Shown: positions 1,116 to 60,218, counted from the first letter of the stretch. The stretch: 64,000 bases of DNA from Pseudomonadota bacterium (GCA_918234285.1 CAKJXZ020000003.1:70933-134932), one strand, 5' to 3'. Translations and numbers: made by a program. Notes: a model not told the origin generated them from the letters alone.

Positions 1116-1290
1116 AAATAAATTTTTTGATATATATATTTGGTTTGATAAAAATAATCTGAATAATAAAATTGACAAAAGACAATATAACAGTATCCAT
1201 AACAAATTGCAAGCCCTTAATTTAAAAAAATTACAAATAGTGATTGACAATGCCGTTTTTTTATGTAATTTTCTGTTTTGAAAAGCCGAT

Positions 1291-1367: not shown

Positions 1368-1410
1368 TATACCCAAAAAGACCACCCTCGAGGTGGTCTT
1401 TTTGGGTATA
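1368..1410 (+). terminator. long hairpin immediately after tRNA-Arg
   Basis: TATACCCAAAAAGACCACC-CTCGA-GGTGGTCTTTTTGGGTATA, a near-perfect inverted repeat. Confidence 0.7.
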
Positions 1411-1416
1411 TGAAGT

Positions 1417-1664: not shown

Positions 1665-1669
1665 TCTGC

Positions 1670-1698
1670 TTTTTTACCACCCTTGAGGTGGTTTTTTC
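1670..1698 (+). terminator. hairpin terminator after repeat unit 2
   Basis: ACCACCCTTGAGGTGG plus a T-run. The core is nearly identical to the hairpin after tRNA-Arg (ACCACCCTCGAGGTGG). Confidence 0.65.
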
Positions 1699-1733
1699 TT
1701 TACAAACTTTTACAAATATCATACATTTCAACC

Positions 1734-2744
1734 ATGAAACTATACAAACAAGACATTATCCGCCTCTTAAGCGACGAACAAAATCAAGAAGATTTGTTCC
1801 GAAAGGCTGATGCGGTTCGCAAACAATACGTCGGCGACGAAGTACACTTGCGCGGACTTATCGAATTCTCCAACATTTGCCGCAACAACTGTATGTATTG
1901 CGGGATTCGCCGCGACAATTCGCAACTTGCCCGCTATCGCATGAGCGAAGACGAACTGATTGAAACCGCACGCAAGGCGGCCGATATGGGCTTTAAGACC
2001 ATCGTAATGCAATCGGGCGAAGATGTATGGTTTTCGCGCGACCGTATGTGTCGCATTGTCGAGGCCATCAAAAAATTTAATGTTGCCATCACGCTTTCGG
2101 TCGGCGAACGCGATTATGACGACTACAAAGCCTGGTTTGATGCCGGCGCCGACCGCTATTTGATGCGCATTGAAACCACCGACAAAGACTTATATCATCG
2201 GCTCGACCCGGGGATGAGCTGGCAACACCGCCACGATTGTCTGCTGGCTATAAAAGAAATCGGCTACGAACTCGGCTCGGGAATTATGGTCGGTTTGCCG
2301 GAGCAATCCGTGGAATCCATCGCCGAAGATTTGCTTTATCTTAAAAAAATCGGAGTTGATATGGCCGGTATCGGTCCGTTTATTCCGCACCCGCAAACTC
2401 CGCTCAAAGACGCCGCCGGCGGCACTCTCGATTTGGCTCGTCGCACTATGGCAATTATGCGCTTAATCATGCCGGATATCAACATTCCGGCCACCACCGC
2501 CATGGAGAGCCTGCACCCGATGGGGCGTATTTGGACTTTGCAAAGCGGCGCCAACGTGGTTATGCCGAATGTGACCGAAGGCGAATATCGCAAGCTTTAC
2601 GAACTGTATCCGGGCAAAATCTGTGTGGACGACACCCCGCTCCACTGCAAAACCTGTATCGGTGCCAAAATCATGAGTATCGGTCGTACCATCGGCCAAG
2701 GTTACGGCGGACATGCCGGAAAATTGCCGCACCCGACAAAATAA
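1734..2744 (+). CDS. hydE: radical SAM protein, [FeFe]-hydrogenase maturase HydE-like (BioB/HydE family)
   Basis: CRNNCMYCGIRRDN is a CxxxCxxC radical-SAM motif in the context LRGLIEFSNIC...YRM, with a BioB/HydE-like body. The start was moved to the ATG at 1734 (MKLYKQD). The ORF-track start lies inside the terminator. Confidence 0.6.
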   Translation: MKLYKQDIIRLLSDEQNQEDLFRKADAVRKQYVGDEVHLRGLIEFSNICRNNCMYCGIRRDNSQLARYRMSEDELIETARKAADMGFKTIVMQSGEDVWFSRDRMCRIVEAIKKFNVAITLSVGERDYDDYKAWFDAGADRYLMRIETTDKDLYHRLDPGMSWQHRHDCLLAIKEIGYELGSGIMVGLPEQSVESIAEDLLYLKKIGVDMAGIGPFIPHPQTPLKDAAGGTLDLARRTMAIMRLIMPDINIPATTAMESLHPMGRIWTLQSGANVVMPNVTEGEYRKLYELYPGKICVDDTPLHCKTCIGAKIMSIGRTIGQGYGGHAGKLPHPTK

Positions 2745-2753
2745 AAGCTCAGC

Positions 2754-3218
2754 TTAATTCACATCGCCCAAAACAACGGTTTCTTTAATCTTTTCAAGGT
2801 GTTGTAAATACGGAATTATTGCTTTCGGATAAAAATCGGAAGTCGCCAGTTTATCGAGCTCTATCCATTTTATTTTCTGCTCGTCGCTGTCCGGCTCGCT
2901 GCCGTTGCCGAGCGTTGAAAAATCGGCAACTTCGCATTCAAACATCAGCTCGGACAAATGAAAGCAATCCAAATCATACGGCTGGTCATGATTCTTGGCA
3001 ATATAGTCCCGCGCCAACACCAAACGCCGCGGCTTAACTTCCAGATTAAGTTCTTCTTTGCACTCGCGAATGATGGTTTCCTCCATGGTTTCGCCCCATT
3101 CCTGCCCTCCGCCCGGCAATTTGCAATAGCGCCCGCGCCCGTAATCGACACTCACCGTCAACAACTTATTGTCTTTTATGATGACGGCCTTGACCGAATG
3201 CTTAAAAAACTTTTCCAT
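2754..3218 (-). CDS. NUDIX hydrolase
   Basis: Nudix box GGGQEWGETMEETIIRECKEELNL (GX5EX7REUXEEXGU). Confidence 0.85.
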   Translation of the reverse strand: MEKFFKHSVKAVIIKDNKLLTVSVDYGRGRYCKLPGGGQEWGETMEETIIRECKEELNLEVKPRRLVLARDYIAKNHDQPYDLDCFHLSELMFECEVADFSTLGNGSEPDSDEQKIKWIELDKLATSDFYPKAIIPYLQHLEKIKETVVLGDVN

Positions 3219-3355
3219 AACTTATTCCCTCAAACGACAATATGTTGCAGTATATCAGCCATCCGCCGCTTGTAAACACAAAAGTGAGCCGCTTGCCTTC
3301 AAAAATATTTGATTTTGGCGGCAAATCATGGCATAATCAGGTCAAAGGAGCGATT

Positions 3356-4360
3356 ATGACGGATTTTGCAAACAATAAAATCAAACAACGCAAAGTGTAT
3401 AAATACATTTTGAGCAACCTGTTTTATTTGGCGATTGCTTCCGCCGCCGGCGATGCGCGAGCACAAACCGCTACCGCTTCCGACAGCATTCCGCAAAATA
3501 AAAACAAAACCGGTTTGAGTGCCGGAGTTGATAATATTTCGGCCTTAACCGTCGAAAAAGATGCCACCGTTTTTTATAACAATCTTCAGCCGTATGTCGA
3601 GGCTCATGCCGAAAATTTCCACGGATACTATGCCGATTTTGCCGCATTGGTGGAAATTACCTTGCATAATGACGATCCGGTCACTTCGGTACTCAGCAAA
3701 TTTACGGCCGAACTCGGCAAAAAATTAAATAACGGCGGCGAATTATTTGTAAAAGTCGGTCGTGAAGAAACTCAAGACGCCGATGTTTCCGAACATGCCA
3801 TCGACTATATGGCCGAAAACGATATTGAAGATTTCGGCAACAGTGTTGAGCGTTTGGTTTTCGGTTTCAAAGATAAAAACGGCAATTACCTCGAAGCCGG
3901 TACCGTCTGGGATACCGGCACCGGCAAATACATCATCTGCCCCGACAAAGATACCGCCGATTTTTGGGGACGCGGCCACTTGTCAATCTTGAACAAAAGT
4001 AATGTCGGCATCTCCGTAGAAGCTGCTACCCGTCTAGGCGCACACCATCGCCTCGGTATCGCCGCTGCCACCCTTGAAACAGCCGGCGGATTTGGTCTCA
4101 AAACTCTGTTTGAGCGCGACTTTACCAACAACGAAAATAAAGAGCTGGTGCGGATTTATAAAAACCTGAAAAACGGCACCGCTGTCATCGGTGAATTGGT
4201 GCATGCCGGCGAAGGTCGCGGAGTTGATTTGCGTTTGGGACTGGGTAAAAAAGGTATGCAGATTTATGCGCAATACAACACGGAAAATAAAGCCCCTAGT
4301 GCCGGACTTTCATATACTTTCGGCCTCAAAAAAGACCTTCGTGGCAAAAAGTTGCGTTAA
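3356..4360 (+). CDS. hypothetical exported protein
   Basis: ATG at 3356 preceded by AAAGGAG. An N-terminal hydrophobic segment ends AGDARAQ, which looks like a signal peptide. No family recognised. Confidence 0.6.
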   Translation: MTDFANNKIKQRKVYKYILSNLFYLAIASAAGDARAQTATASDSIPQNKNKTGLSAGVDNISALTVEKDATVFYNNLQPYVEAHAENFHGYYADFAALVEITLHNDDPVTSVLSKFTAELGKKLNNGGELFVKVGREETQDADVSEHAIDYMAENDIEDFGNSVERLVFGFKDKNGNYLEAGTVWDTGTGKYIICPDKDTADFWGRGHLSILNKSNVGISVEAATRLGAHHRLGIAAATLETAGGFGLKTLFERDFTNNENKELVRIYKNLKNGTAVIGELVHAGEGRGVDLRLGLGKKGMQIYAQYNTENKAPSAGLSYTFGLKKDLRGKKLR

Positions 4361-4432
4361 CCGCATCCCCGTTATTTTGTTTTAATCGCCGGTTACGGAC
4401 AAGCAATCGCCACAGATATTTTTATCAAGCAA

Positions 4433-4942
4433 CTAAATACACTTCGGGCAATCTTTTACCGACCCCGTGCATTTTTTGAACAACTTGTTGCAACAATCGG
4501 CGCTCCACACCGGATATTCCTCCAGCTGATACTTACCGCAATAACCCTTTGCTCTGATAACAACACAATCGTTTTCGGTTGCATCCTTGCAGCATTTTTT
4601 TACCGGCGAATACGGATATGCCGCATATTCGCCCTCTCCGCAATAATGAGCGACGCCGCCTCCGCTCCGGCAACTATTTTCCGTTTCGTCCGTGCAACAA
4701 TAATCAGTTGTAGTCGTCGTTGCCGAATGCGGATAGTCTTTCCAATCTCCCTTGCCGCAATCTTCGATTTTATCGCTGATAATAACGCAATCGCCTTTAT
4801 CGGCTTCTTTACAACATTTTTTCGTCACCGCAAAACCGACGGGACACGGCCGGCAATTCGGATCAATGCAAGCCTCCGCCCGTGACACGTACAAAAATCC
4901 CGCACCAATAAGCAACACTGCCGTCAACAATCTTTTTTTCAT
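4433..4942 (-). CDS. cysteine-rich modular secreted protein
   Basis: Signal peptide MKKRLLTAVLLIGAGFLYVSRAEA. The mature part holds 20 Cys, with three to four modules of the form CC-x7-C-x9/10-C-G-x-G/Y...YP. Start chosen at the second ATG, which is better spaced from GAAGG. Confidence 0.7.
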   Translation of the reverse strand: MKKRLLTAVLLIGAGFLYVSRAEACIDPNCRPCPVGFAVTKKCCKEADKGDCVIISDKIEDCGKGDWKDYPHSATTTTTDYCCTDETENSCRSGGGVAHYCGEGEYAAYPYSPVKKCCKDATENDCVVIRAKGYCGKYQLEEYPVWSADCCNKLFKKCTGSVKDCPKCI

Positions 4943-5251
4943 CACAACCATCCTTCGCTAAATCAAGAACTACCGTTCCAAATCATTTTTCGTCGCATTC
5001 TTTGTAACTTACGGTGTAGTATCGGATTTATTTCTCGGCATATTACTTCTCCCTTATTGCAACACGTAAACAATATACCGCAATCGGCAAAAACTGTCAA
5101 TACGCTAACTTTCGAGCAAATCTTTAAGCTCAGTCATCGCGCAAAAAATATGTTTAACTCCGTCAAAATCCCATATTATCAATTCTATTGTCATACCGAC
5201 TGCTTTTGTTTGATTTTATTGAAACGGGTGTAATATATTCAGGCGCTCCAT

Positions 5252-5749
5252 TTATATAACGGGGATAAACAGCTTTACGTTGCCGACAAAACCATCACAT
5301 TCTTCGGTATTGCCAAACCCCATCCGGCAACTCACGTATATCTTATCTTTGATTTTATGCAGCGGTTGCAACTCTAGGTGCCCGTAAAACAAATTATTAT
5401 TAATCTGCTTTTTGAATTTAATTTTTTCAAACTCCAAAATATACACCCGACGACGATGTTCATTAAATTCATCGGGCGTTATGTCGGCATAAAACGGAAA
5501 CATCTTTTTTTCTATACCGGCCAAAAGTGCGACATATATCATCTGATTAAAGCACATCAACGCTTCAACCGCATTAAAATGTCCGGAACCCGGAGACAGA
5601 TAGCACGATTCTTTTATGGAAAACTGCGCCGTTAAGTTTACAATGTCAGCCGTATTATAAACCTGTGCCTGTGTTATATAACGCGTGTTTTTCGCAATAT
5701 AGGTAACCAAGGCTTTATTGATTATTTCTTCCGCTACGTTTTTTTCCAT
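5252..5749 (-). CDS. hotdog-fold protein (FcoT-like thioesterase/dehydratase-like, tentative)
   Basis: The segment SGHFNAVEALMCFNQM resembles the hotdog active-site helix region. The assignment is from memory only. Confidence 0.45.
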   Translation of the reverse strand: MEKNVAEEIINKALVTYIAKNTRYITQAQVYNTADIVNLTAQFSIKESCYLSPGSGHFNAVEALMCFNQMIYVALLAGIEKKMFPFYADITPDEFNEHRRRVYILEFEKIKFKKQINNNLFYGHLELQPLHKIKDKIYVSCRMGFGNTEECDGFVGNVKLFIPVI

Positions 5750-13341: not shown

Positions 13342-13587
13342 TTGACCCGAATTTCCGTGCGAGATTTGAACGAGGTACGCGGCCTCCTGAAAAGATACCT
13401 TAATGTATGTTTTCAGGAGGAGACGCAATGAAACTTAATTGAGCAAGAGAAGCGACAGCAACCGTGGCGAAATTTTGTTGGAATTGGGAGGAAAATCTAA
13501 ATTAACAATCGAGTGCCCGAAGCGAAGTTAACGATTGGCAAGCGACAGCGTCGACAGAGTTCACAAAGCAATACACCATTAAAAAAC

Positions 13588-39745: not shown

Positions 39746-40924
39746 TTAATCGCGTGTGCGAGATTTATCTTGCGGAACCTTATTATCCTTGCCGGTCCAT
39801 TGAGCGATAGCATCGTCAATCGCTTCTTTCCACTGTGATCTCGGATTGTTTTTAACCATTTCGGCTTTTTTGACGGCATAATCCAATAACTTGGCATTGT
39901 TCGGATTTTTTTCCAAAAGCTTAGAGAAAACTTCTTTGACGGTGTAACCGTTATTCCAATCTGCGGCCATATCGGCGCTGAAAGGATCGCGCAAAATTTG
40001 CATGGCGATTTCTTCATTATTCGGATTAGCCTCCAATATGGCGGAATATACGTCAACCTTAGCGCTGTTCCAAGCCCCGTAAGTCATTTGAATCAGGCGA
40101 TCACAAACATCTTTTTTCTTCAAATCACAAGTGAGAGCCAACAGCTTACTACGGTAAGTATTGGTTGTGCTTTCATCTTCGAAGCTGGTATTTTCCGCAT
40201 CCCTGCGAATTTTATCGAGAACTTCCGGCATATCTTGATTGGCTCGGGCAATACTGGTAAGAATGCCATGATGTCCTATCCACCATCTGACTTTGTTGGC
40301 TTGAGCAAACGCCATATCTATAACCTGTTGGTTGCCCGGATTGGCCTCGGTAATGACACTGGTCCACGTTGTGCGCACCGAATCCGATATATAATCAAAA
40401 TTATGCATAATTTGGCAGGCACGGCTGGCAACCGCTTTATCATTTTTGCAATGCTTGATAATATCAAGTATGGCATCGTGGCCATCGGTAATATCTAAGT
40501 ATTGCCAAGCTTTGGATTCTTTCTTATTCATTCCGTCCATGTTCGGAAATTCGCGACTATTGGCAGTCATGGCCACCATCATATCCATCATTGCATCCTT
40601 ATCATCGGGATTGTGAATCAATAAAACAGCCGCACGCAAACCGCGGTCACCTAAGCTGTTGGCGGCATTTACGCAAATATCGATGATACCCTTATCTTCC
40701 GGACAGGCTTTGGCAATCCCCGGTATAACATTTAACATGATACAACCGTCACCTTCTTGATTTGAGCGTGCGATACCGGCCCGCAACAAATCACGCGCGT
40801 AGATACGTTTCTTTTCCTGCGGTGCTTCCTTTATGATATTCATCACAACTTTTTCGGCATTAACGTAGATATCCGGACTTCTTCTGCTTAATGCTTCTTC
40901 AAATTTATCTGCGGCTGCTCCCAT
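39746..40924 (-). CDS. hypothetical cytoplasmic helical-repeat protein (392 aa)
   Basis: Recurrent (E)ANPxNxx(V/I)xxxx helices (ANPGNQQVIDMAF, ANPNNEEIAMQIL, KNPNNAKLLDYAV). No signal peptide and no family recognised. Confidence 0.65.
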   Translation of the reverse strand: MGAAADKFEEALSRRSPDIYVNAEKVVMNIIKEAPQEKKRIYARDLLRAGIARSNQEGDGCIMLNVIPGIAKACPEDKGIIDICVNAANSLGDRGLRAAVLLIHNPDDKDAMMDMMVAMTANSREFPNMDGMNKKESKAWQYLDITDGHDAILDIIKHCKNDKAVASRACQIMHNFDYISDSVRTTWTSVITEANPGNQQVIDMAFAQANKVRWWIGHHGILTSIARANQDMPEVLDKIRRDAENTSFEDESTTNTYRSKLLALTCDLKKKDVCDRLIQMTYGAWNSAKVDVYSAILEANPNNEEIAMQILRDPFSADMAADWNNGYTVKEVFSKLLEKNPNNAKLLDYAVKKAEMVKNNPRSQWKEAIDDAIAQWTGKDNKVPQDKSRTRD

Positions 40925-40965: not shown

Positions 40966-41601
40966 TTATTCTTTACCGGCGTCGGTCTTCTTTTTCAAAT
41001 TTTTTACCACAAAATCAAGTGTGGTCGGTTTGCGGCCGACCCTGCTCTTGCGATATTCGCCGATTTCCTTTTGTGTGGTTTTTTCAGCTTTTTTTCTGGC
41101 GCGAAGCTCGTCTATCTTATGTTGCTTCCATGCCTTATCTATGTCTTCTTCCTTATCTTCACGCAAAGACTGTTCAGCGGTCCTTTCATCATAGTGATAT
41201 TGCGCATTTTTTTCTAAATATTCTCTTGTTTGGTCAATAAATCTTTTTAATTGAGGGTATTTTTCTTCCAAACCGAAAAGACCGAATTCGCTTTCTACTG
41301 TATTTTGTAATTTGGTGTCTGAGCCATATAAATTACAAAACTTTTCACCTTCGGTACAAAGAACTTGGACTGTTTCAAAAGATTGTTCAATAATGCTGTA
41401 GTTGTTCGCATTATTACCCACAATTTGTTCAATCCAAAATATTTCATGAAATTTTTGGTTTCCGCTGGTAACTGCGGCCTTATCGCGTAGGACTTCCAAG
41501 GTACGCAGAATTTTTTCGGTGTCTTTACTTTCCGACAGTTTTTCCAATTCTTTATTTAATATTCCGTCTTCGTCTATAATGAATTTATTGCGTACGGTCA
41601 T
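40966..41601 (-). CDS. hypothetical protein (211 aa) with a highly charged C-terminus
   Basis: A clean ORF co-oriented between ftsK and 39746..40924. No family recognised. Confidence 0.6.
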   Translation of the reverse strand: MTVRNKFIIDEDGILNKELEKLSESKDTEKILRTLEVLRDKAAVTSGNQKFHEIFWIEQIVGNNANNYSIIEQSFETVQVLCTEGEKFCNLYGSDTKLQNTVESEFGLFGLEEKYPQLKRFIDQTREYLEKNAQYHYDERTAEQSLREDKEEDIDKAWKQHKIDELRARKKAEKTTQKEIGEYRKSRVGRKPTTLDFVVKNLKKKTDAGKE

Positions 41602-41752: not shown

Positions 41753-44509
41753 TTAATCCACACCCAGAACTTCACGACGACCGACGTGGTCTTGTTTTGA
41801 GACAATGCCTTCCTGTTCCATCCGTTCAATCAGATTGGCGGCACGGTTGTAGCCGATACGCAACTTGCGCTGGACATAGCTGGTGGAGGCCTTTTTATCG
41901 GTGCGCACAATTTCAACTGCCTGGCGATATAATTCTTCTTCATCGCTTCCGCCGCCGAATTCGCCCTTATCAAACACCGGACCAGAATCTTTGGTTTCCA
42001 GCTCGCCGGCGGTAACTTCAGCCACATATTTCGGCTCGCCCTGCGATTTGATAAATTCAACCACACGCTCAACTTCTTCATCGGCCACAAAACAACCGTG
42101 AACGCGCACCGGCCGTGTGCCGGACGACATAAACAGCATATCGCCCATACCGAGCAATTGTTCGGCACCTTTTTCACCCAAAATGGTACCGCTGTCGATT
42201 TTGGTGGTAACGTGGAAACTGATGCGGCTCGGGAAGTTAGATTTAATCACGCCGGTAATAACATCAACCGACGGACGTTGCGTCGACATAATTAAGTGAA
42301 TACCGGCCGCACGTGCCATTTGCGCCAAACGTTGAATGGCGGCTTCCACCTCTTTGCCGGCCACCAGCATCAAATCGGCCATTTCATCAACCACAATCAC
42401 AATATACGGCATCGGCGAAGTATCGATAACCTGTTCTTCATAAATCGGCTGACCGGTTTCTTTATCAAAGCCGGTCTGAATGGTTTTTTTCAAGCCCTTA
42501 CCGGTTTTTTGCATTTCTTCGATTTTCTTGTTATAACCGGCAATGTTGCGAACATTCAAGAGTGCCATCTGACGATAGCGATTTTCCATTTCCTGTACTG
42601 CCCATTTGAGGCCGACGACCGCTTTTGCCGGGTCGGTGATCACCGGAGTAAGCAGATGCGGAATACCGTTATACATCGAAAATTCCAGCTGTTTCGGGTC
42701 AATCATGATAAAGCGGCACTGCTCCGGAGTCATCCGGTATAACAGCGACAGAATCATGGTGTTGACCCCGACCGACTTACCGGAACCGGTGGTACCGGCA
42801 ACCAACAAGTGCGGCATTTTGGAAAGGTCGGCATAAACGTGCTGACCGCCGATATCTTTACCCAGAGCTACGTTTAAGATGTTTTTGCTGGTTACGAATT
42901 CGTTATCCTCAAACAGCTCACGTATCCACACGGTTTGCCGTTTTTCGTTAGGCAATTCGATACCGATGGTGCTATGGCCGGCAACAACCGCCATACGCAC
43001 CGAAGATACGGCCATTGAGCGGGCAATATCATCGGAAAGACCGATGACTCGGGCAGTGCGAGTACCGGCTTTCGGCTCAAGCTCATACAGCGTTACTACC
43101 GGACCCGGGCGCACAGCCACGATTTGGCCGTGAATGTTAAAGTCGTTTAATACCTGCTCAAGCTTAGCAGCACGCTCTTTGAGTGCGTTTTCGTCAACCA
43201 CTACCGCACCGGTCTCTTTAGGAACCGAAAGCAGATTAATATCCGGCAGAGTATATTCATGCGGTTGAGATTGCGAACGTGAAGCGGTTTCTACCTGAGG
43301 TACGACCACCTGCGCTGAGGCCGTTGCCGTACGTTGTTCCTGTGGCTGCTGTTTGGTTGGTGTCGGCGCGGTTGTCGGAATATTCAAAAGTTCTTCCTGT
43401 ATAGCGGCCGGTTGGCGACTTGCGGCCTTAGGGGCTGTTTGTTTGGCACCCTCGGTGTGATAAATATCTTCCGGCGATATCTTGGTTGCCGGTTTTTTCT
43501 GCATAACTTGCGGCTCGTTAATAAAATCAAACGTCGGATTAACCGAAGATGTTTTAGAATTTTCGACCGGTGTTACCGAAACCGCAGAAACAGATGCTGT
43601 CGGCGGAGTCGGTTGTTGCAACGTTGCTTGCGGCATAACGATTTTCGGACCGCTTTGAGCTATGTTTTGCGCCGGTTTTTCCGCCAAAGAAGCCAACGCC
43701 GTAGAAGTGTTCAACGCTTGACTGTTCATGGTCGGTTCAATGCGTTCAAACCCCGGTTCGCGCCGTTGATTGATCGTAGCCAATTTATTTTGCATTTTGG
43801 CACGCACATAATTCGGATTAACCTCTTTGAATTCGTTAAAACTGCGAATATGCGCAACTTTCTTAAATATTTTGACGATTGCACGAACAATTTTACCAAA
43901 GAAAGCTGCGATTTTGGAAAGCAGACGCAACCAATATTTAAAGGTAATCCCGGCCGCAAAATTAAATGCCATCAGGCTGATAAACAGCAGCAAAACCAGC
44001 AGAATTATCTTATTGTAAGGCGGCTTTAACAGCGTCAGATAATTCGCATAATTATTGAGAGAAGTACTCAAATGGCGCGACCATTCTCCGGTTAAACTGT
44101 ACGGTAGATTGAAGCGTCCTAAATAATTGCGACAGGTCAAATCAATAAAACCGGCAAAGCTGATAACCCCGACAAACCACGCAAACAGGCGCATTTTCCA
44201 TTCAATAATTTCGCGATGAAAGATTAAACTCAAACCCCAAAGAATCGGCACAATAAGAAACACTATCAGTGCCAAACCGAATGTGCTTAATACAAAATCG
44301 GCGCTGTACGCTCCGAATAATCCCAGAAAATTCTGCACCGGGCGATCATCTGACACGACCTTATTGAGCGACGGATCATCGGCACTATAATCAAAAATTG
44401 CCGCCCAAATTGCCAACGGCAAAATAATCAGAACCGCCCCCACCAGATTGCAAAATATCTTTTTGAACCATGATTCAGATTTTTTATTTTCGTGTATACC
44501 CGATTTCAT
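41753..44509 (-). CDS. ftsK: DNA translocase FtsK
   Basis: N-terminal TM helices, a Pro/Gln-rich linker, Walker [10 protein letters not shown], and a gamma winged-helix domain ...[24 protein letters not shown]. Confidence 0.93.
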
Positions 44510-44787
44510 TTTTTCCTCAAATTAAAGATCTCCTTAATCGCTCGGATTATAGCCGAAAATCCTCAATAAAATGTTAAAAATGCGTAACAGATTATTTTAT
44601 TTTTACGGTTATCGCATTTTTCAAAATGTGTGCCGAGGCAAAAGAGGAATATAACGCCGCGCAGAAGAAAACGGCGGAACGACGGGAAATGCGCCGTAAA
44701 CAAAGAAAGACAAGAAAAATTAACTACACAAGGCTGTAGCCACTTTTTATAAACGCCCGAATCATCCTCGGGCGTTTATTTTTGTTC

Positions 44788-44840
44788 TTCTCCGGTTTAT
44801 ATGGCTCCGCCCAGCATCGACAGTTATAATCCTCCCCGGG
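44788..44840 (-). repeat. conserved toxin block, copy 3 (truncated)
   Basis: Encodes GNPGEDYNCRCWAEPYKPE on the minus strand, then diverges and stops after about 25 codons. Confidence 0.8.
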
Positions 44841-44904
44841 ATTTCCTACGGCTCTTTATGGTATTTTAACTAAACTTTACTATATTAACTTTAGAGGTGG
44901 CAAA

Positions 44905-45720
44905 ATGAAAAAATTTGTTTTGATTTTGGGGTTGTTATTAGTACTTAATTTGCAAACAAAGTTGGCTAAGGGTAACAATCAAATTAATTATGATCATTCA
45001 ACTGATAATAAAAATATAATAAATATAGTGGAAAAATTTAAAACCCTAATAGCCACCAACAATCCGCATATTATCTCCAAATACGTAAAATATCCGTTTA
45101 ATATTGGCGATAATTGTCCGGATATACAAAATAAAGAAGAGTTTGTTCAAAATTTCGATATAATATTTGATTCATTGTTAACAACACAAATTATGGCTTC
45201 TGATATCAATCTATGGAATTTTAACGAAAAACAAAATGTAATTTTTTATGATAGTCCCTATGTTCAATTATCGACAGATGGTTATTTGATGGATATTGAA
45301 TATACTGCAAAACGCACACAAAATAATAAAAAATGTGTATTGGAAGAAAAAAGCAAAATCTATCCTTCTTTAAAGAAATATCAGAAAAATTTATATACAT
45401 TGAAAACTTACGACCATATATATAGAATTGATTTGACTAATAAAGGTTTGAGTGCAACGACATATCGACTGGCAATTTGGAAAAAAGAGCAAAAAATGTC
45501 CGAAAAACCGCTAATAATCATCAATAACGGAAAGTTAAAACTATATGGAAGCGCGAACAATGAGAAATACATCTTTGAAGATAAAGAAATATCTTATATA
45601 GTCGAAATCAACACCGCTCGCGCTTTAGAAACAATTCCTATTGAAATAACCGTTATAAACAATTTTTCAGCAAAAAAATATCCTGCAGTAAATATAACTA
45701 ATAGTCCCAATCTTTATTAG
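44905..45720 (+). CDS. signal-peptide protein, candidate immunity protein for orphan CT 45698..46420
   Basis: MKKFVLILGLLLVLNLQTKLAKG signal peptide and AGAGGTG RBS. Its 5' region is homologous to that of 46554..46979. It overlaps the convergent CT gene by 23 nt. AT-rich. Confidence 0.65.
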   Translation: MKKFVLILGLLLVLNLQTKLAKGNNQINYDHSTDNKNIINIVEKFKTLIATNNPHIISKYVKYPFNIGDNCPDIQNKEEFVQNFDIIFDSLLTTQIMASDINLWNFNEKQNVIFYDSPYVQLSTDGYLMDIEYTAKRTQNNKKCVLEEKSKIYPSLKKYQKNLYTLKTYDHIYRIDLTNKGLSATTYRLAIWKKEQKMSEKPLIIINNGKLKLYGSANNEKYIFEDKEISYIVEINTARALETIPIEITVINNFSAKKYPAVNITNSPNLY

Positions 45721-46504
45721 ATCTAAGCCTTGCCGCAATACTATCATTTCTGCTTTTTCCTACATCTGGCCTAAAACTTTCTTCTATCATTTTATCTAAA
45801 TTTTTTGCATTTACCCATTTTCTGAAACGTACGAATTGCAAGCAATTTCCCGTATTATATTGGAAATCAATAAAAACATCTTGGATAATCGGCGGATATT
45901 TATAAAATTCTGGAATATTATCTTTAATAAATTCGATATCTTTTTCGAGATGCTTTATGACTTTATCCGATATTGTTTCCGAGGATAAATGTATTGAAGA
46001 ATATTTTTTATAAAAAATCGGCAATTTCCCTTTAGGCAAAGATTGTATCTTCTCGTAATTTTTATGTATTTCTGCGAATTGGGCTGGTTTATTATTATCA
46101 TCAAGCCAAGGCATATCACAAAAAACCTCATAATCATCAACGTTTAGACCGGCACCTACGGTTATATATCCCTTAGTATCTTTATATGGATAATCAACAA
46201 TACCTTCTTCTTTTATAATTTGAGGAACATTACGTAATATTATTGTATCCACATTAAGATCATTATTGCTTGATGGCTTTCTTTCATACCCTGCGTCGGT
46301 TGCCACATTTGCTTTATCATTAGCGGCGTATTGAGGTAGACCATTAAGCTTGAAATCAACCAGCTTAAGTGTTTTTTGCAGCTCTTTAAACATATCAAGT
46401 CCGCTGACATCTATAATCATCGGCTTATCGGCATATCTTTCCGGTTTATACGGCTCCGCCCAGCATCGACAGTTGTAATCCTCCCCCGGATGCCCGCCGG
46501 TTAT
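45698..46504 (-). CDS. orphan polymorphic-toxin C-terminal cassette: MuF NCRC remnant, conserved linker and a GH24 (T4-type) lysozyme-like domain
   Basis: The first ATG is at 46420, but the frame is open from 46504 (just after a TAA) and encodes TGGHPGEDYNCRCWAEPYKPERYADKP. EEGIVDYPYKDTKGYITVGAG carries the E-x8-D-x5-T lysozyme triad. Confidence 0.7.
   Translation of the reverse strand: MTGGHPGEDYNCRCWAEPYKPERYADKPMIIDVSGLDMFKELQKTLKLVDFKLNGLPQYAANDKANVATDAGYERKPSSNNDLNVDTIILRNVPQIIKEEGIVDYPYKDTKGYITVGAGLNVDDYEVFCDMPWLDDNNKPAQFAEIHKNYEKIQSLPKGKLPIFYKKYSSIHLSSETISDKVIKHLEKDIEFIKDNIPEFYKYPPIIQDVFIDFQYNTGNCLQFVRFRKWVNAKNLDKMIEESFRPDVGKSRNDSIAARLRSNKDWDY
46292..46492 (-). repeat. conserved toxin block, copy 2 (201 nt)
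   Basis: Near-identical to 47652..47852. Encodes HPGEDYNCRCWAEPYKPERY...VDVSGLDMFKELQ...VDFKLNGLPQYAANDKAN.A.DA. Confidence 0.85.
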
Positions 46505-46553
46505 TTATTGTATTTTAACGAAACTATGCTATATTAACCCCAGAGGTATAAAA

Positions 46554-46979
46554 ATGAAAAAGTTTATTTTGATTTTAGGATTTTTATTAACATTGAGTAA
46601 CCGTTCATACTCTCAAAGCTCATCTGAGAAACAGCAAGAGTTTGTTAATCCTATTTTTAACAAAACATTGTATGGTTACAGCAAGCAAACTTGGAACACC
46701 CAACTCTCTCCAAGCAGTATTATAGCATCTCCTGATAATCTTTCAGATCCGAATGCTTATATAGAGCAATATCCTTGTGAACTGTTGGAAAATAAACACG
46801 ACCATGTAAAATTCAACTGCACTATTTGTTATGGATATTTATCTAAATTAGAAGCTAAAGATTGTTACCATGATATTATCATATACCAAATAACTACTGA
46901 TGGTAAAATAAAAGAAACAACCTTTAATCCTAAACGCCCAGAATTTCAAAGTATTGAATATTTAATCACAAAACCATAA
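46554..46979 (+). CDS. signal-peptide protein, candidate immunity protein for CT 46980..47891
   Basis: MKKFILILGFLLTLSNRSYSQ signal peptide. Its stop codon directly abuts the stop of the convergent toxin gene. The mature part is unrelated to 44905..45720. Confidence 0.65.
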   Translation: MKKFILILGFLLTLSNRSYSQSSSEKQQEFVNPIFNKTLYGYSKQTWNTQLSPSSIIASPDNLSDPNAYIEQYPCELLENKHDHVKFNCTICYGYLSKLEAKDCYHDIIIYQITTDGKIKETTFNPKRPEFQSIEYLITKP

Positions 46980-47891
46980 TCACCACCGTTTTATAGATAA
47001 TATTTTATCTTTCATCTCATCATTTCTATCTTTCGAGATGCCTTTTCTATGAACTTGCTTTGCCAATTCGGGAACATTTTTCTCATTGAAATATTGTTTA
47101 AAATATGTCCAAGTATTATCCGTAATTCCCGGATTATATTGAATATCAAAAGCAACATCTTGTGCTGCTTCCGGCGCATAATCTATGTCAGGCAGATAGT
47201 GTTTAAGGTTGCTGTAGTCCCGTTGTAAATGCGAATACATCAAATAATCAGCTTCATCTTCAGTTATGTTGAGGACAGCATCTTGCTCATATCTCTTTGC
47301 AGTAATTTTTTGAAAAGGATTCAAATAAGGTTTTTTGCTTTTTTCGGCTTCTGCTTTTGCTTGTGCAATAATCTTTGCTCTCACTTTTTCCATTCGTTCA
47401 AATTCCGCACGCATTTCATCTTCGGTTGCCGGCCTACCATTATATAGCCAATGCACTTTTCTAAAACTTTCCCAGTCATTAATTAAAGCTCCATTACCTG
47501 TTGTTATATAACCTGAACTATCCAAATAAGCATATTCCTTTGTATTTTCTCTTGCAATAATTTGTTTTCCAATTCGTTTTAACAACTTTTCCTCTTCAGG
47601 TGAGCGGAATTCTACTTTGCGATGTGCGTATGCAGAATTTGAAGTATACGTTGCATCGCTTGCCATATTTGCTTTGTCGTTTGCGGCATATTGCGGCAAG
47701 CCATTAAGCTTGAAATCAACCGGTTTCATTTCTGATTGCAACTCCTTAAACATATCAAGTCCGCTGACGTCTACAATTACCGGCTTATTCTTATATCTTT
47801 CCGGTTTATATGGTTCCGCCCAGCATCGGCAGTTATAATCTTCACCCGGATGCCTCTTGCTTTGTAAATTCTTGCTGCACTTCGTTTGCAA
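46980..47891 (-). CDS. MuF C-terminal motif, conserved linker and GH24 lysozyme-like toxin domain (3' part of a disrupted MuF-toxin gene)
   Basis: TTG start directly after a TGA. HPGEDYNCRCWAEPY, then RENTKEYAYLDSSGYITTGNG (E-x8-D-x5-T), with a T4-lysozyme-like C-terminal lobe (DVAFDIQYNPG...SKDRNDEM). Confidence 0.7.
   Translation of the reverse strand: MQTKCSKNLQSKRHPGEDYNCRCWAEPYKPERYKNKPVIVDVSGLDMFKELQSEMKPVDFKLNGLPQYAANDKANMASDATYTSNSAYAHRKVEFRSPEEEKLLKRIGKQIIARENTKEYAYLDSSGYITTGNGALINDWESFRKVHWLYNGRPATEDEMRAEFERMEKVRAKIIAQAKAEAEKSKKPYLNPFQKITAKRYEQDAVLNITEDEADYLMYSHLQRDYSNLKHYLPDIDYAPEAAQDVAFDIQYNPGITDNTWTYFKQYFNEKNVPELAKQVHRKGISKDRNDEMKDKILSIKRW
47652..47852 (-). repeat. conserved toxin block, copy 1
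   Basis: See copy 2. It lies inside ORF 46980..47891. Confidence 0.85.
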
Positions 47892-47940
47892 TCATTAACT
47901 GCGCTTCGGTCACTCGTTTTGTAAATTCGCCACGCGTCGT

Positions 47941-48333
47941 TTACACTAGCTTGCTTATTAACAAAACTTCGCCGCTTGCGGTAAAAACAACCGGAGCAAT
48001 GGTTGTTTTTATCCTCGCGCCATCCGGTGGCACATGCCAATTAAAAATTTCACCTTCACGCTCGGCGTGTTTGCCGCGAACTCGGTCGTCGCGCTTTGTC
48101 CGCCAGATATAATAATCTTGCGGATTTTTATCCATATCGTCCGCCAAAATTGCCTTTAATCGCGGGTTGGGTGAGTTTTCGTTGGCCACGTCAATTTGAC
48201 TGTACGGGTCATTACTCCGATACCGCGGGTCAACATAATACCACTCGCTTTGTCCTTGCTTTTTATATCCTCGTTTTACACTCTTAAACCCGTGCAACCG
48301 CTGATACAGATTATTTTTTTCGCTATTCTGCAT
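47941..48333 (-). CDS. MuF-domain (phage head-morphogenesis-like) N-terminal fragment
   Basis: YYIWRTKRDDRVRGKHAEREGEIFNWHVPPDG matches the core of the Phage_Mu_F pattern (W..D.R.R..H...G..F). It ends at a TAA that looks premature. Confidence 0.7.
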   Translation of the reverse strand: MQNSEKNNLYQRLHGFKSVKRGYKKQGQSEWYYVDPRYRSNDPYSQIDVANENSPNPRLKAILADDMDKNPQDYYIWRTKRDDRVRGKHAEREGEIFNWHVPPDGARIKTTIAPVVFTASGEVLLISKLV

Positions 48334-48652
48334 ATTTTCACTCCTTAAACTCTATCATTAAATTCTTATATAATAATTTATTTATTATCATATTTTGATA
48401 CCTGAACAAACCGCATAAGTCCGAAAGCAAATGAGGTCTATCATGGAAAACTATAAATCGCTAATGATTTTAACAATATACTGATAACACGTCGTATCAC
48501 CATTGTCAAGTTTAAAATAAGAAAAATATAAAATTAAGCCGTTTATACAATGAAAAATCTTATTTTGAGCGCAAAAAAATATACCGGCAATGATTTCGCA
48601 GAACGTGATATATACGAAGAAAATCCCTTCGCGCGATGTAAAAATCATCTAC

Positions 48653-48895
48653 AAAAAACTCATAGAATTAGGCTAATAGAAAAAGGTTTTTTCCACAAGA
48701 ACGTCCCTTTAAAAAACTCAGAGAATGGAGTTAATACGCCGAAAGCCTTTGTCCTTCGCTTCGCTCACGACGCTTTCAGCCCTGCGCCCAAAAAACTCAT
48801 AGAATTAGGCTAATAGAAAAAGGTTTTTTCCCGCGGTGTACAAAGTGGTACATAAGGGAAAAAACCTTTGATAGTAGCCAATTATATGAGTTTTT
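48653..48895. repeat. family-A repeat array: two 5'-half copies plus one full copy (48790..48895)
   Basis: AAAAAACTCATAGAATTAGGCTAATAGAAAAAGGTTTTTTCC occurs twice. The full copy ends GAGTTTTT, 1 nt from the rpsD stop. Confidence 0.8.
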
Positions 48896-48896
48896 A

Positions 48897-49511
48897 TTAT
48901 CTGGAGTAGTATTCGATAACCAAATTCGGCTCCATAACAGCCGCATAAGGCACATCTTCAAACTTCGGAATGAAGGTGTAAGTTGCCTTCATCTTTTTGG
49001 CATCAACTTCCAAATATGTCGGCCAATCACGAGTTTGCGATTCGAGAGCATTGATAACCATATTCATACTCTTGGACTTTTCGCGAACTTCGATAACATC
49101 GCCGGCCTTGACCATATAAGACGGAATGTTTACTTTTTTGCCGTTAACGGTAACGTGGCCGTGGTTTACAAATTGACGAGCCGCAAATACGGTCGGTACG
49201 AATTTTGCTTTATAAACCAGGTTATCCAAACGGGATTCGAGCAAACCGATTAAGTTTTCGGCGGCATCGCCAGAACGACGAATAGCCTCAGCATAATATT
49301 TACCGAATTGCTTTTCGGAAATGTTGCCGTAGTAAACTTTCATCTTTTGTTTGGCAATCAATTGTTGACCGTAGTCGGTAACTTTTGCTTTTCTTTGACC
49401 ATGTTGTCCCGGACGATATGATCTTTTGTTAAACGGGCTGTTATTATCACCCCAGAGATTGTCGCCGTAGCTACGGCTCAATTTTTTCTTTGCAGAAACG
49501 ATACTTTTCAT
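48897..49511 (-). CDS. rpsD: 30S ribosomal protein uS4
   Basis: Canonical S4 (..RPGQHG.....SDYG.QL..KQK......E.QF...Y...). Confidence 0.95.
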
Positions 49512-51514: not shown

Positions 51515-54130
51515 TTAACCCATATCCTTGCCCATTCTGCTCTTAATCATAGCATTCAAAGCCTGCTCGCCGTTACCGGAAACAGAAGAAGCTTTTTCCG
51601 CACCGGCCTCAACCGCAGAGCCCGGAACAACTTTCTTCGGAGCTGTCGGTACAGCGTAATCGGTGGATTGCTTATCCTTTTCCATCCAACCTGCATTACT
51701 TCCCGTCTTGTACGGCTGTTCCTTGGTGGTGATAACCGCACCGTCATCAGCATGACCATCAACCGGTGTCGGAGCAGGAACAGGAGCCGGTTCCGGTTCA
51801 GGAACAGGGGCCGGTTCCGGTTCAGGTTTCGGCTCAACAACCTTCTTAACCACTGCCTTAAAGTGCTCCCAGTAGCTTACGTGAGCGCAATTAACGTCAC
51901 CGGCCTTATGCATCAAATCGGAAGTACCGACATAGCGGTTGTTGTTAAGGTGCTCCAAACTCTTATCCAAGTCATCACCGCTGGCCGTAATGCGATTCAA
52001 CGTATTACCGAGATCTTCGGCAGAAACATTCACTTTTTCTTCGCAGAAGATAATGTGATTCAAAGCCTTAATTTCGGTTGCATTGGTCCAATAATCCGGT
52101 TCACCGTTAACCATCGTGGATTGAATCAATCCGCCGGAAACGTATTCACCTTTTTCACGCCAAGCGATGAGGTGCAGATACTTATACATAATCTCACCAA
52201 CTGGTTTATCCGGCAAAGCACCGTTATCGATAGCTTTCTGAATATTGTCTGCCATCTTTTGAGTAACTTCTTCCATATTATCCGGATTTACATCCCAACC
52301 GTAGATTTTAGCATATTCGGCAGCCTGACCTTGAACATGGTTTTCAATCCATTTTTCCTGACCGGAAGAAATACCCTCTCTCCAATCGGCATGGGTAACT
52401 TCAACCGGAGCAGCATCGGCATTACCACCATTACCGCCGTTATCGGCAACCGGAGCTTCATTTTGATTATCGTTCAACGGAGCGAAGTGGTCCGGATTAT
52501 GGTCAACACCCATATTATAGTCGGCATTATAAGCATCAGCTGCACTGTTGGCCATGCAGAATTCCGACAAACCGGTACCCAAAATGCTGAGGTAGAAGTA
52601 AGTACGAGCCTTCTTGTAACCCTTCAAGCTCTCCGCTGTCTGGTCTTCCTGATATTGCTGCTCAGCTTCTTTCATTTGTGCATGAGCATTGACGTTGCCG
52701 CCGATCATACGCGTACCGGAGGAAATCGCTCTGGTACCCATATAAGCACCGGCACCGGCCAAACCTAACACAGCACCGCCGCCGACAATTACCGGAGTGG
52801 CCAAACCGACAATCGCCGCACTGGCCAAACCGTACTTTCTGTTGGTACGTCTTTGACGATCGAATCTCTCTTTTTCTTTTGGATTCGCCATAATGGATTT
52901 ATAAGCGTTACGAATACCGTTCCAACCTTTCCAGTTAGCGATTTCCTGTTCGTTACCGCTGGCTTGGGCAGCCTTATAGTTGGCATGTTTCTTTTCCCAA
53001 ATCGTCCACTTAGACGGAGCAAACGATTGGTAAACACCATAAGCCGCAGCAGCAGCCAAGCCCGCCGGAATGGAATACAGAGCCGCACCCACCATACCGG
53101 CCGCAGCCAAAGTATTGGTAATACCGCGTCTGTGCGAGAAGTAACCGAACAAATCTCTACCGAATTCAACCGGAGTCATACCGCAATGCTTTTCAACAAA
53201 TCTGTTGAATTTTTCCAACTTGCGCGACAGCCAGGAACCGGACTTTTCTTTGCCGGCTTCATTTAATCTATCGACCTTATCCTGCATCTTCTCTTTGGTA
53301 GATTCGATGCTGGAATAGAACTGATTGGCTTGAATCTTAACTTTTTTACCGTCAATAAAATCTTTTACGGCTTTATCGTCATCGCCGAGCATCTGCAACA
53401 TGTCGCCGCGGAAATTGGTAATAACATCATCTTTCAAAGCATCTTTCTGCTCATCATCACTCTTAGCGGCAAAAGCGGCATCGTCCATGTGAGCCATCGA
53501 AACTTCGTTCAAAGCGGCACGCATCTTAGTCAGCCAGATTTCATTTTCATCTTCAACAGCCGCACCTTCTTCGTCAACAATGCTTACCTGATTACTGACT
53601 TTATTGATTTCGCTAATGCAAACGTTACGGAAATCATCACCGTCAAGAATACTGTCGATTTTTTCGGCATTGGCAACAATTGCATCATCGCTCATGCTCG
53701 GAGTCTGTTTTTGAACGGTTTCCTGCTTTTCCTGAATATGTTTCATTTTATCGGTTTCGGCAATCATGGCTTCGATAGCATCGCCTTTTTCCGGATCTTC
53801 TTTGATTTCCGGCAATTCGCGCATCATTTTCAATGCTTCTTTGCGCAAATCCTTACTTTTGGACGCACTCAAGAACTCGGCAATCTTTTCCAATTCAGCC
53901 GTGTCATTTTCTGCGCGTGCCACATCTGCACGATACAATGCGTTCAGTTCCTTAAGTAACGGACGATTGTTATCAAAATCCTTAATGGTTGCCAATACGC
54001 CGTTATCCGGATCATGCTCTTTTAAATATCTGATAGCCTGGTCCAAATCTTTGCCGTAGGCATACGACTGAATAATTTTTTCTGCGTTTCTGATCTTGTC
54101 TTCAACCGCAGCATTTCTTTGATTTGCCAT
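51515..54130 (-). CDS. large orphan protein (871 aa) with two central Gly/Ala-rich hydrophobic hairpins and a Pro-rich repeat
   Basis: An acidic helical N-terminal half. Hydrophobic segments NTLAAAGMVGAALYSIPAGLAAAAAYGVY and YGLASAAIVGLATPVIVGGGAVLGLAGAGAYMG. A PEPEPAPVPEPEPAPVPAP repeat near the C-terminus. No family recognised. Confidence 0.7.
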   Translation of the reverse strand: MANQRNAAVEDKIRNAEKIIQSYAYGKDLDQAIRYLKEHDPDNGVLATIKDFDNNRPLLKELNALYRADVARAENDTAELEKIAEFLSASKSKDLRKEALKMMRELPEIKEDPEKGDAIEAMIAETDKMKHIQEKQETVQKQTPSMSDDAIVANAEKIDSILDGDDFRNVCISEINKVSNQVSIVDEEGAAVEDENEIWLTKMRAALNEVSMAHMDDAAFAAKSDDEQKDALKDDVITNFRGDMLQMLGDDDKAVKDFIDGKKVKIQANQFYSSIESTKEKMQDKVDRLNEAGKEKSGSWLSRKLEKFNRFVEKHCGMTPVEFGRDLFGYFSHRRGITNTLAAAGMVGAALYSIPAGLAAAAAYGVYQSFAPSKWTIWEKKHANYKAAQASGNEQEIANWKGWNGIRNAYKSIMANPKEKERFDRQRRTNRKYGLASAAIVGLATPVIVGGGAVLGLAGAGAYMGTRAISSGTRMIGGNVNAHAQMKEAEQQYQEDQTAESLKGYKKARTYFYLSILGTGLSEFCMANSAADAYNADYNMGVDHNPDHFAPLNDNQNEAPVADNGGNGGNADAAPVEVTHADWREGISSGQEKWIENHVQGQAAEYAKIYGWDVNPDNMEEVTQKMADNIQKAIDNGALPDKPVGEIMYKYLHLIAWREKGEYVSGGLIQSTMVNGEPDYWTNATEIKALNHIIFCEEKVNVSAEDLGNTLNRITASGDDLDKSLEHLNNNRYVGTSDLMHKAGDVNCAHVSYWEHFKAVVKKVVEPKPEPEPAPVPEPEPAPVPAPTPVDGHADDGAVITTKEQPYKTGSNAGWMEKDKQSTDYAVPTAPKKVVPGSAVEAGAEKASSVSGNGEQALNAMIKSRMGKDMG

Positions 54131-59548: not shown

Positions 59549-59877
59549 GATGACGTGTCATCCCATAAATCTGCCTGCCGCCAAACACGCCTCCCGACTT
59601 TTAAGAATTTCAGCCTGTTCTTACAACCTAATGCCGACAGCCTCAGCAGTATTAAACCTATTAACCGTTCATTAAAAAAGATTAACAAACCGTTAAACAA
59701 GAGTCATATAACACGGCTTTTTTTAAAAATCCAGTAAAAAACGCTTTTTATCCGTATTTTTATAGTTAAAATTCAAACAACCAATTGTTTTATAATGGTT
59801 TTTTCAATAAATAAAAATGCCGTTTTTTATATTTTTAAGTCCGAAATTCCTCATTTGCATATTGTAAAAATTCTATC

Positions 59878-59905
59878 TTGATATTTTTAAAAGAATCTCT
59901 ATATT
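59878..59905 (+). promoter_or_regulatory. candidate ssrA promoter
   Basis: TTGATA at 59878..59883, a 16-nt spacer, then TATATT at 59900..59905. Confidence 0.45.
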
Positions 59906-59911
59906 ATGAAT

Positions 59912-60218
59912 CGTCAGGCAACTGACTGTGACACCAGAGGCCTTATGAAATAGGTACGTCGGACCCGAGGGCAGTACTCGGCACCTCCACCATTTTACGG
60001 GGGTGAAACAGGATTGACGGTGTATAGTAAAGATATGTGTTGTGTCCGGTGAGATACCACCGTTATCGGTTCAAACTAAATAAACGCAAATGATAATTTT
60101 GCACCTGTTGCCGTTGCTGCGTAATGCGGTAAATGCAACGAATTTCAATTCTTTGAGCTTTGGTTAGCTTAAAGTGGGGAGTGAGCCGCCCAGCAACAGA
60201 ACGGCTCGTTTGATTTTA
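59912..60218 (+). ncRNA. ssrA: circularly permuted (two-piece) tmRNA
   Basis: The acceptor piece ends ...CACCTCC-A-CCA at 59992. After a 6-nt spacer the coding piece starts GGGGGTGAAACAGGATTGACGG at 59999, and G3 pairs with U (the alanine identity element). The tag ORF GCA AAT GAT AAT TTT GCA CCT GTT GCC GTT GCT GCG TAA (60086..60124) encodes ANDNFAPVAVAA. A terminator hairpin lies at 60183..60207. Confidence 0.85.

Follow-up and report, generated by a model that had tools for sequence, protein, structure and literature searches.

The island at 44.7-48.4 kb of a 64,000-nucleotide (nt) stretch of the genome GCA_918234285.1 (CAKJXZ020000003.1:70933-134932, here called the window) is probably a chromosomal polymorphic toxin-immunity array of a phage-derived family, which is named mini-MuF here. 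The host is an uncultured gut or rumen alphaproteobacterium; an alpha-type permuted transfer-messenger RNA at 59874-60211 points to the alphaproteobacterial origin of the window. A full-length toxin of the family consists of a leaderless N-domain, a linker and a variable C-terminal domain (CT) that is a predicted peptidoglycan glycosidase. Each CT is followed, usually tail to tail, by the gene of a candidate cognate exported protein (Sec-dependent or lipoprotein), which may inhibit the enzyme in the periplasm and shield the cell from toxin coming from outside. The window array consists of one lead gene, which is split, one orphan cassette and one stub. Its parts, with lengths in nt or amino acids (aa), are as follows.

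48019-48333, minus strand: 5′ part of the lead gene, encoding the mini-MuF N-domain from M1 to WHVPPDG, 58-79% identical to the N-domains of intact homologues
47853-48018, minus strand: insertion of 166 nt that splits the lead toxin gene
46980-47852, minus strand: 3′ part of the lead gene, encoding HPGEDYNCRCWAEPY (the end of the MuF core), the linker to ...DKANMASDA, and CT1
46554-46979, plus strand: imm1, 141 aa with a Sec signal peptide, family IMM0, candidate immunity gene for CT1 and convergent with it
45698-46494, minus strand: orphan cassette, consisting of the block 46286-46494 and the divergent lysozyme-like CT2, without a start codon and preceded by a stop
44905-45720, plus strand: imm2, 271 aa with a Sec signal peptide, family IMM2, candidate immunity gene for CT2 and convergent with it
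44724-44846, minus strand: truncated third copy of the block, in which GNPGEDYNCRCWAEPYKPE runs into unrelated sequence that ends in a stop

The initial annotation had read the island as a toxin-immunity array with cassette swapping at the NCRC block, with muramidases as payloads and convergent genes for exported immunity proteins. Comparative sequence evidence supports this core reading, the functions being predicted. It consists of covariation over ~45 loci, a different cassette at the syntenic locus L046, a fusion in L111 and a jump in synonymous divergence.

The comparison drew on ~110 related loci; 49 toxin or orphan cassettes make up the gut-clade set. The first downstream open reading frame (ORF) shows, in most of these 49, a signal-peptide-like start, and it is mostly convergent with the cassette. 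Some of the downstream proteins begin with a lipobox-like motif (ITAC, LTAC, IGC). Signal-peptide-like starts were called by a heuristic and a few are doubtful, e.g. that of the 73-aa ORF after L045 and that of the 108-aa ORF after L013. The CTs and the mature downstream proteins were clustered separately over ~45 loci, and the CT clusters map nearly one to one onto the families of downstream proteins. The downstream signal-peptide-like protein falls in a multi-locus CT-immunity pairing in 36 of the 49 gut-clade cassettes. The pairings are as follows.

CT0/CT1 with IMM0: 17 loci
CT2 type, including the CT2 of the window, with IMM2: 6 loci
CT3 with IMM1: 6 loci
CT4 with IMM3: 2 loci
CT6 with IMM4: 2 loci

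The toxins lack a signal peptide and the partner proteins carry one. An exported inhibitor of a leaderless cell-wall enzyme would be expected if the enzyme enters the periplasm from outside.

Both partner genes of the window follow this pattern. The imm1 protein is 89% identical to that of the gene following a CT1-type toxin in L001. The imm2 gene overlaps the stop region of CT2 by 23 nt, and compared with the gene that follows the MuF-fused protein P0042 in L111, 271 of 272 aligned positions match, stop included, with one residue different. As initially annotated, the two convergent ORFs share their beginning and have unrelated mature parts: the first dozen codons (MKKF[IV]LILG[FL]LL) and the upstream regions of imm1 and imm2 are homologous. 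The antisense strand of the stub is the sole sequence available upstream of imm2. A promoter and terminator consensus scan of the island gives 14 promoter-like sites against 19 expected from shuffled sequence, thus the promoters of the immunity genes stay putative. Neither imm1 nor imm2 shows a Pfam family. The structure model of imm1 displays an 8-stranded beta structure with a predicted local distance difference test (pLDDT) of 75. Its Foldseek matches in the PDB are weak, the best being a bacterial lipocalin-like protein (E=0.013). The modelled fold speaks neither for nor against an inhibitor role.

It is proposed that an incoming unit of block, CT and immunity gene would replace the resident one by homologous recombination in the HPGEDYNCRC/linker block, and that the old cassette would be shifted downstream as a start-less orphan. 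The recombination block of the lead gene (47646-47854, repeat D1) recurs at 46286-46494 with 82% identity over 209 nt. There, as the initial annotation had it, the block follows a stop, has no start and leads into a second lysozyme-like domain. The stop lies five codons upstream of HPGEDY, and CT2 is 99% identical to the C-terminal part of P0042. The third, truncated copy is confirmed as well: 44791-44940 is a repeat of 46440-46589 with 84% identity over 150 nt. The stub frame stays open for 29 codons past the motif and ends at a stop at 44724-44726. Equivalent stubs are found past the last immunity gene in L001, L025, L045 and L046, and arrays with start-less orphans in L002, L005, L045, L050 and L111. 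The orphans all start at one common point, with a stop a few codons before GGHPGEDYNCRC (L002, L045, L046, L050 and the window).

The comparison of related loci proposed in the initial annotation gives evidence for exchange. L046, from a rumen metagenome-assembled genome (MAG), is syntenic with the window, the ftsK sequences being 89.7% identical over 3.2 kb. The L046 ftsK locus carries one different cassette, with a CT tail of 304 aa after NCRC and a 151-aa partner, and then a stub. The CT2 and imm2 sequences of the window recur in L111 with 95.9% identity over 1725 nt. In L111 this CT2 is fused in frame to a MuF N-domain, the chromosomal context is another one, and a further orphan follows. 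Compared with L001, the window has a synonymous divergence (dS) of 0.12 in CT1 against ~1.9 in the N-domain. This jump across the junction of N-domain and CT shows that the two parts have different histories. The ratio of nonsynonymous to synonymous divergence (dN/dS) among chromosomal copies is 0.09-0.18 in the CT and ~0.10 in the N-domain, thus both parts are kept up by selection.

The N-terminal part is a cut-down MuF domain. The MuF core reported for ORF 47941-48333 is confirmed by a match to PF04233 (Phage_Mu_F) with E=1.9e-4 and 22.6 bits. This is below the gathering score, and the match is weak because the gene is split; intact homologues give 34-49 bits against a cut-off of 29.6. Even these cover only model positions ~58-110 of 112. 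The mini-MuF N-domain is ~120 aa long and leaderless, ends in HPGEDYNCRCWAEPY, and retains only the C-terminal half of MuF (SPP1 gp7 / Mu F). When 1.84 billion representatives are searched with the full N-domain, only ~25 clusters match at E < 1e-10, which marks the complete domain as a narrow family. Relatives that share only the core and carry other C-terminal domains are found in Rhodobacterales, Micavibrio, Rickettsiales and Caulobacteraceae genomes.

The payload CT1 is, by sequence profile and structure model, a T4-lysozyme-type (GH24-like) domain and a predicted muramidase. Its family profile aligns to T4 lysozyme with E11, D20 and T26 matched (E=8.5e-4), and E208, D217 and T223 are invariant among 68 homologues (E-x8-D-x5-T). 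An AlphaFold model was made for P0001, which is 91% identical to the window protein, with these 68 homologues in the alignment; its mean pLDDT is 84. Residues 1-130 form a confident N-domain, the C-terminal domain is confident as well, and residues 147-181 fall below a pLDDT of 50, from which the lead-toxin linker is predicted to be partly disordered. A Foldseek search of the PDB with the model gives T4 lysozyme with probability 1.0 and a template modelling (TM) score of 0.66. T4-lysozyme entries fill the list for the full P0001 model, which leaves the N-domain uninformed. Profile, fold and the invariant residues agree with the T4-lysozyme-spaced domain described initially for ORF 46980-47891, whose MuF signature and conserved segment are confirmed as well.

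CT2 displays the same E-x8-D-x5-T spacing. Other members with the same N-domain carry Phage_lysozyme/GH24, Pesticin, GH108 plus PG_binding_3, or VgrG3-like_C (PF21277) domains, and one further payload type shows a motif resembling that of soluble lytic transglycosylases (SLT-like), read by eye. At least 5 CT types occur on one N-domain. To judge from their sequences, all recognisable payloads in the gut/rumen clade are peptidoglycan glycosidases or glycosidase-like. Four proteins (P0026, P0041, P0117 and P0119) have a Pro-rich linker that is ~150 aa longer and lies between the block and the CT. It contains an internal duplication, in which ...YTTEQGNMTTDVPVQF... occurs twice.

One claim of the initial annotation has to be revised. 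ORFs 47941-48333 and 46980-47891, both on the minus strand, had been listed as separate and are one gene interrupted by 166 nt at 47853-48018. The ORF with the MuF core, as it stands, continues into the insertion and stops at 47941. A search with the 303-aa protein of the other ORF gives 127 relatives. The nearest full-length ones (P0001, P0002, P0003 and P0008) are single MuF plus CT proteins of 391-399 aa, in which ...WHVPPEGG passes directly into HPGEDYNCRCWAEPY. DNA alignment with the intact loci L001 and L002 places the extra sequence of the window exactly at the WHVPPEGG/HPGEDYNCRCWAEPY junction, and deletion of 47853-48018 in silico restores an uninterrupted reading frame of 1185 nt. 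The insertion carries a perfect 10-bp hairpin (48001-48010 / 47983-47992). The frames of the two gene halves each meet stops within it; the remaining frame is open, but its use would take two frameshifts. As judged from its sequence, the lead gene in this genome is unable to yield a full-length protein, and the locus probably still makes both immunity proteins but no deliverable toxin. The insertion looks recent, since both halves of the gene are otherwise free of stops and CT1 shows a dN/dS of 0.18 against the L001 allele.

The insertion element is also found in the mini-MuF genes of L017, L026, L028, L036, L039, L041, L107, L109 and L110. It is ~160 nt long and conserved, with a hairpin and a T-run followed by the invariant core GAGTGACCGAAGCGCAGTTAATGATTGC. 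Two distinct sites in mini-MuF genes are occupied, one after PPxG and the other after DDKV. L041 has two copies, and the sequences of L036, L107 and L110 look like deletions between two copies arranged as in L041. An unbiased metagenome scan for the exact core gives 4 matches, of which 3 are inside mini-MuF genes. The insertion may be a small mobile element specific for this target, or an allele spread by recombination in the conserved sequences on either side. An intron, a ribozyme and translational bypass were considered and rejected. A search of Rfam with the insertion gives nothing (best E=0.9), the insertion folds no better than shuffled sequences (z=-1.2), and the internal deletions differ among copies (L028, L036). 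A high-copy miniature inverted-repeat transposable element is likewise unsupported, the 64-kb window containing one full and one diverged partial copy and the whole metagenome collection only the four exact-core matches just given.

Diverged copies of the element are found in intergenic DNA at 13440-13570 of the window, immediately downstream of a tRNA-Glu gene, and also in L014 (3409-3502) and L108 (1560-1730). In L108 the stem sequence differs and the pairing is kept, which suggests that these diverged copies form a functional terminator-like structure or a small RNA.

The manner of delivery was left unexplained in the initial annotation. L001, L002, L004, L005, L111 and the window lie in six housekeeping neighbourhoods that are unrelated to each other, no phage gene being found within 8-10 kb of them, and most loci are chromosomal without phage genes nearby. 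The initial description of the locus as chromosomal and non-prophage therefore stands for the window, but it does not extend to a phage-independent family, since six relatives lie within a phage head region. L086 is a viral contig with portal, large terminase (TerL), major head protein and tail-collar fibre genes; between its terminase and head genes lie a mini-MuF-pesticin-like gene and, convergent with it, an IMM0-like gene. Five MAG loci (L027, L030, L037, L043 and L048) adjoin homologues of the L086 phage genes. These head modules are otherwise collinear, and the two-gene module lies variously behind TerL, ahead of it, or behind the major head protein. The six phage-borne relatives narrow the options for delivery to packaging in trans, and they also keep alive a role in phage entry and exclusion, which is weighed below.

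MuF is regarded as a capsid-targeting domain, and the MuF toxins described have all been placed in prophages (PMC3482391, PMC5576092, PMC11699363). From this literature, trans packaging into the particles of a related phage is the most economical hypothesis, and on sequence grounds it is plausible. A related phage or phage-like particle, encoded at another place in the genome, would take up the protein into its capsids by way of the mini-MuF domain, and ejection would then free the enzyme into the periplasm of the recipient. The wider proposal, held here only tentatively and with low confidence, is that bacteria may maintain chromosomal libraries of mini-MuF cell-wall enzymes for trans loading into capsids, so that a resident phage or phage-like particle would serve as a secretion system carrying effectors with a periplasmic action to neighbouring cells, and that the exported immunity proteins would decide who survives or can be infected.

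Several points weigh against the toxin-immunity interpretation and the delivery it implies. The portal, terminase and capsid proteins of the related phage give no tblastn match in the window, where neither phage nor gene transfer agent (GTA) head genes were found, in keeping with the initial annotation, which had recognised no capsid, portal or terminase gene. Most viral matches (canonical MuF) have 250-420 residues before NCRC and <16 after it, whereas the chromosomal proteins have 80-160 before and 130-330 after. The 150-300 residues ahead of the core in canonical phage MuF are thus missing from the mini-MuF N-domain, which may therefore have lost capsid targeting. The varying position of the phage-borne module suggests that it acts like an accessory gene (moron) and not as the essential phage MuF. 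Killing of a cell may also take more than a few lysozyme molecules per virion. No known lysozyme inhibitor (Ivy, MliC/PliC, PliG, Spackle or Pim) is present among the PDB matches of imm1, and the putative immunity role of the exported partners is argued from covariation and signal peptides only.

Among the rival explanations, the one that survives best places the enzymes in phage entry. The module would consist of a head-packaged ejection lysozyme and a Spackle-like periplasmic exclusion factor, and would not be an interbacterial weapon. The chromosomal arrays would then be anti-phage inhibitors captured together with linked lysozyme genes, and their diversity would stem from an arms race of phage and host. 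An established precedent comes from T4, whose gp5 lysozyme has the periplasmic inhibitor Spackle (PMC7677548). In addition, the module is found in phage head modules, the payloads are all predicted to act on peptidoglycan, and the window has a broken toxin gene next to two intact inhibitor genes. However, most chromosomal loci retain an intact full-length MuF-CT under purifying selection (dN/dS ~0.1 in both domains), and the conserved upstream region described below is kept as well; a pure defence island would need neither. The phage module is also accessory and shifts its position, whereas an entry enzyme would be expected to be fixed. This explanation is considered unlikely.

A decayed remnant of a prophage virion lysin, without present function, would account for the interrupted lead gene, for an array with a start-less copy and a stub, and for the AT-rich island. 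The halves of the lead gene are nevertheless free of stops apart from the insertion, with the low dN/dS of CT1 against L001 given above. The immunity genes are likewise undamaged, with 89-99% identity to their counterparts at other loci, and the two-gene unit is intact at many unrelated chromosomal sites without other phage genes. Decay is accordingly judged quite improbable. Housekeeping pairs of autolysin and inhibitor for remodelling of the cell's own wall, suggested by peptidoglycan glycosidase genes beside genes of periplasmic proteins, deserve hardly any credence, since the enzymes lack the signal peptide that their partners have, and cassette polymorphism, orphans, and variable copy number and chromosomal position are unexpected of housekeeping genes.

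As a toxin-immunity array, the mini-MuF locus has its closest counterpart in the MuF polymorphic toxins of temperate phages (Jamet et al. 2017, PMC5576092; Zhang et al. 2012, PMC3482391; Apk2 and Bxa, PMC11699363). Both share a PF04233 core ending in NCRC and a variable C-terminal effector; a small gene, in mini-MuF a candidate cognate one, is adjacent, and a minority of mini-MuF members (L086 and the five MAG loci) is likewise inside phage head-morphogenesis modules. They differ in the length before NCRC (80-160 aa against 250-420 in canonical viral MuF) and in location, the window locus being outside a prophage head module with no portal or terminase neighbours and most loci being chromosomal. 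Arrays with orphan cassettes, exported immunity proteins and mostly convergent immunity genes are further differences. The predicted target of the mini-MuF payloads is peptidoglycan in the periplasm, whereas the described MuF toxins are nucleases, ADP-ribosyltransferases, alarmone synthetases and similar enzymes.

Contact-dependent inhibition (CDI, CdiA-CT/CdiI), Rhs and MafB arrays show a like layout: a lead gene whose N-terminal part is conserved and, downstream of it, CT/immunity cassettes without a start codon that have a short block of homology in common with it, the set of cassettes at a given locus varying from strain to strain. In the mini-MuF arrays, however, no CdiB, type VI secretion system (T6SS), Rhs core or MafA partner lies close by, the shared block stems from the end of a phage head-protein domain, and the immunity genes are convergent with their own upstream regions. 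The search for CdiB, T6SS VgrG/PAAR or another dedicated secretion partner covered the sequence within 10 kb in the window, L001, L004, L005 and L111, with none found.

Peptidoglycan-hydrolase effectors of T6SS and type IV secretion systems (T4SS), e.g. Tse/Tsi, VgrG3/TsiV3 and X-Tfe/X-Tfi, also combine a leaderless wall enzyme with a Sec-exported or lipoprotein immunity protein, and one mini-MuF CT type is the VgrG3-C-like PF21277. The mini-MuF targeting domain is of phage-head origin, in contrast, and no T6SS or X-T4SS genes are linked. L004 has VirB10-like (TrbI domain, 1418 aa) and VirB11-like genes 5 kb off (1-4768) with housekeeping genes between, and L002, as the only locus, has a two-partner secretion pair of ShlB and a 4205-aa protein ~5 kb upstream (1-5319). 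A link to T4SS or to two-partner secretion, each seen at one locus with housekeeping genes between, was set aside as probably coincidental. T4 gp5 and Spackle (PMC7677548), a virion-borne T4-type lysozyme and a small exported neutraliser on the same element, resemble the arrangement proposed for the mini-MuF module. However, gp5 belongs to the tail spike and is not fused to MuF, neither polymorphism nor chromosomal arrays are known for Spackle, and no similarity of imm1 to Spackle in sequence or fold was found.

The literature search found no description of MuF fused to peptidoglycan hydrolases, of exported MuF immunity or of MuF orphan arrays. New here are the truncated MuF domain, the chromosomal orphan arrays and the predicted periplasm-acting payloads with exported immunity. 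The papers found on MuF toxins tie them to temperate phages and to action in the cytoplasm, and leave it open by what route, if any, they get into another cell (PMC5576092, PMC11699363). The mini-MuF family departs from this with a targeting module cut down to 120 aa, swappable chromosomal cassettes and the pairing with exported immunity. Exported immunity makes sense only if the enzyme comes from outside the cell, thus the question of delivery becomes directly testable. For Alphaproteobacteria of rumen and gut, the family would mean a so far unrecognised layer of antagonism or else of phage exclusion.

Experiments are feasible because mini-MuF modules are present in cultured Rhodobacterales (L049, L057, L058 and L064). 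These are Aliiroseovarius zhejiangensis, Roseinatronobacter thiooxidans, Cognatishimia sp. SS12 and Lutimaribacter pacificus, the last being L064. Their mini-MuF core (L049 9911-11295, L058 9911-11283, L057 and L064) has 80-95 aa before NCRC. In three of the copies the core is fused to an unrelated, unannotated domain of ~210 aa; the Lutimaribacter protein, with only 34 residues past NCRC, may be truncated. In L049 and L057 the mini-MuF gene is followed by an ORF in the same direction whose start resembles a signal peptide. L049 and L058 sit in housekeeping contexts, one with aspartokinase and a PtsP-like gene and the other with purF- and radA-like genes (listed in that order). A Caulobacteraceae MAG (L079, 10100-13800) shows three tandem full-length mini-MuF genes, each with its own N-domain and not of the orphan type.

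The surroundings of the island in the window agree with the initial annotation, which placed an AT-rich island between ftsK and rpsD. The G+C content is 27-38% at 44.7-48.4 kb and 42-53% in the flanks. Pfam identifies ftsK (41753-44509, FtsK domains) on one side and rpsD (48897-49511, S4) on the other; fabG, fabD, a TPR-methyltransferase gene and queA lie within ~7 kb of the island. Two further features mark its edges.

44749-44779, no strand assigned: G+C-rich 12-bp hairpin, terminator-like, at the ftsK-proximal island edge
48334-48565, minus strand: non-coding region ahead of the lead gene, with a conserved counterpart upstream in the L001 locus

Window positions 48565-48026 align with L001 9776-10317 in a single alignment of 70% identity over 560 nt, which spans the upstream region and the 5′ coding part of the lead gene. 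The chromosomal context of L001 differs from that of the window despite this conserved upstream region. Three flanking ORFs show no Pfam match: 51515-54130 (871 aa), 39746-40924 (392 aa) and 40966-41601 (211 aa). Between the island and rpsD are two perfect direct repeats of 43 nt, at 48652-48694 and 48789-48831 and 137 nt apart, with a third copy of 26 nt and 81% identity between them.

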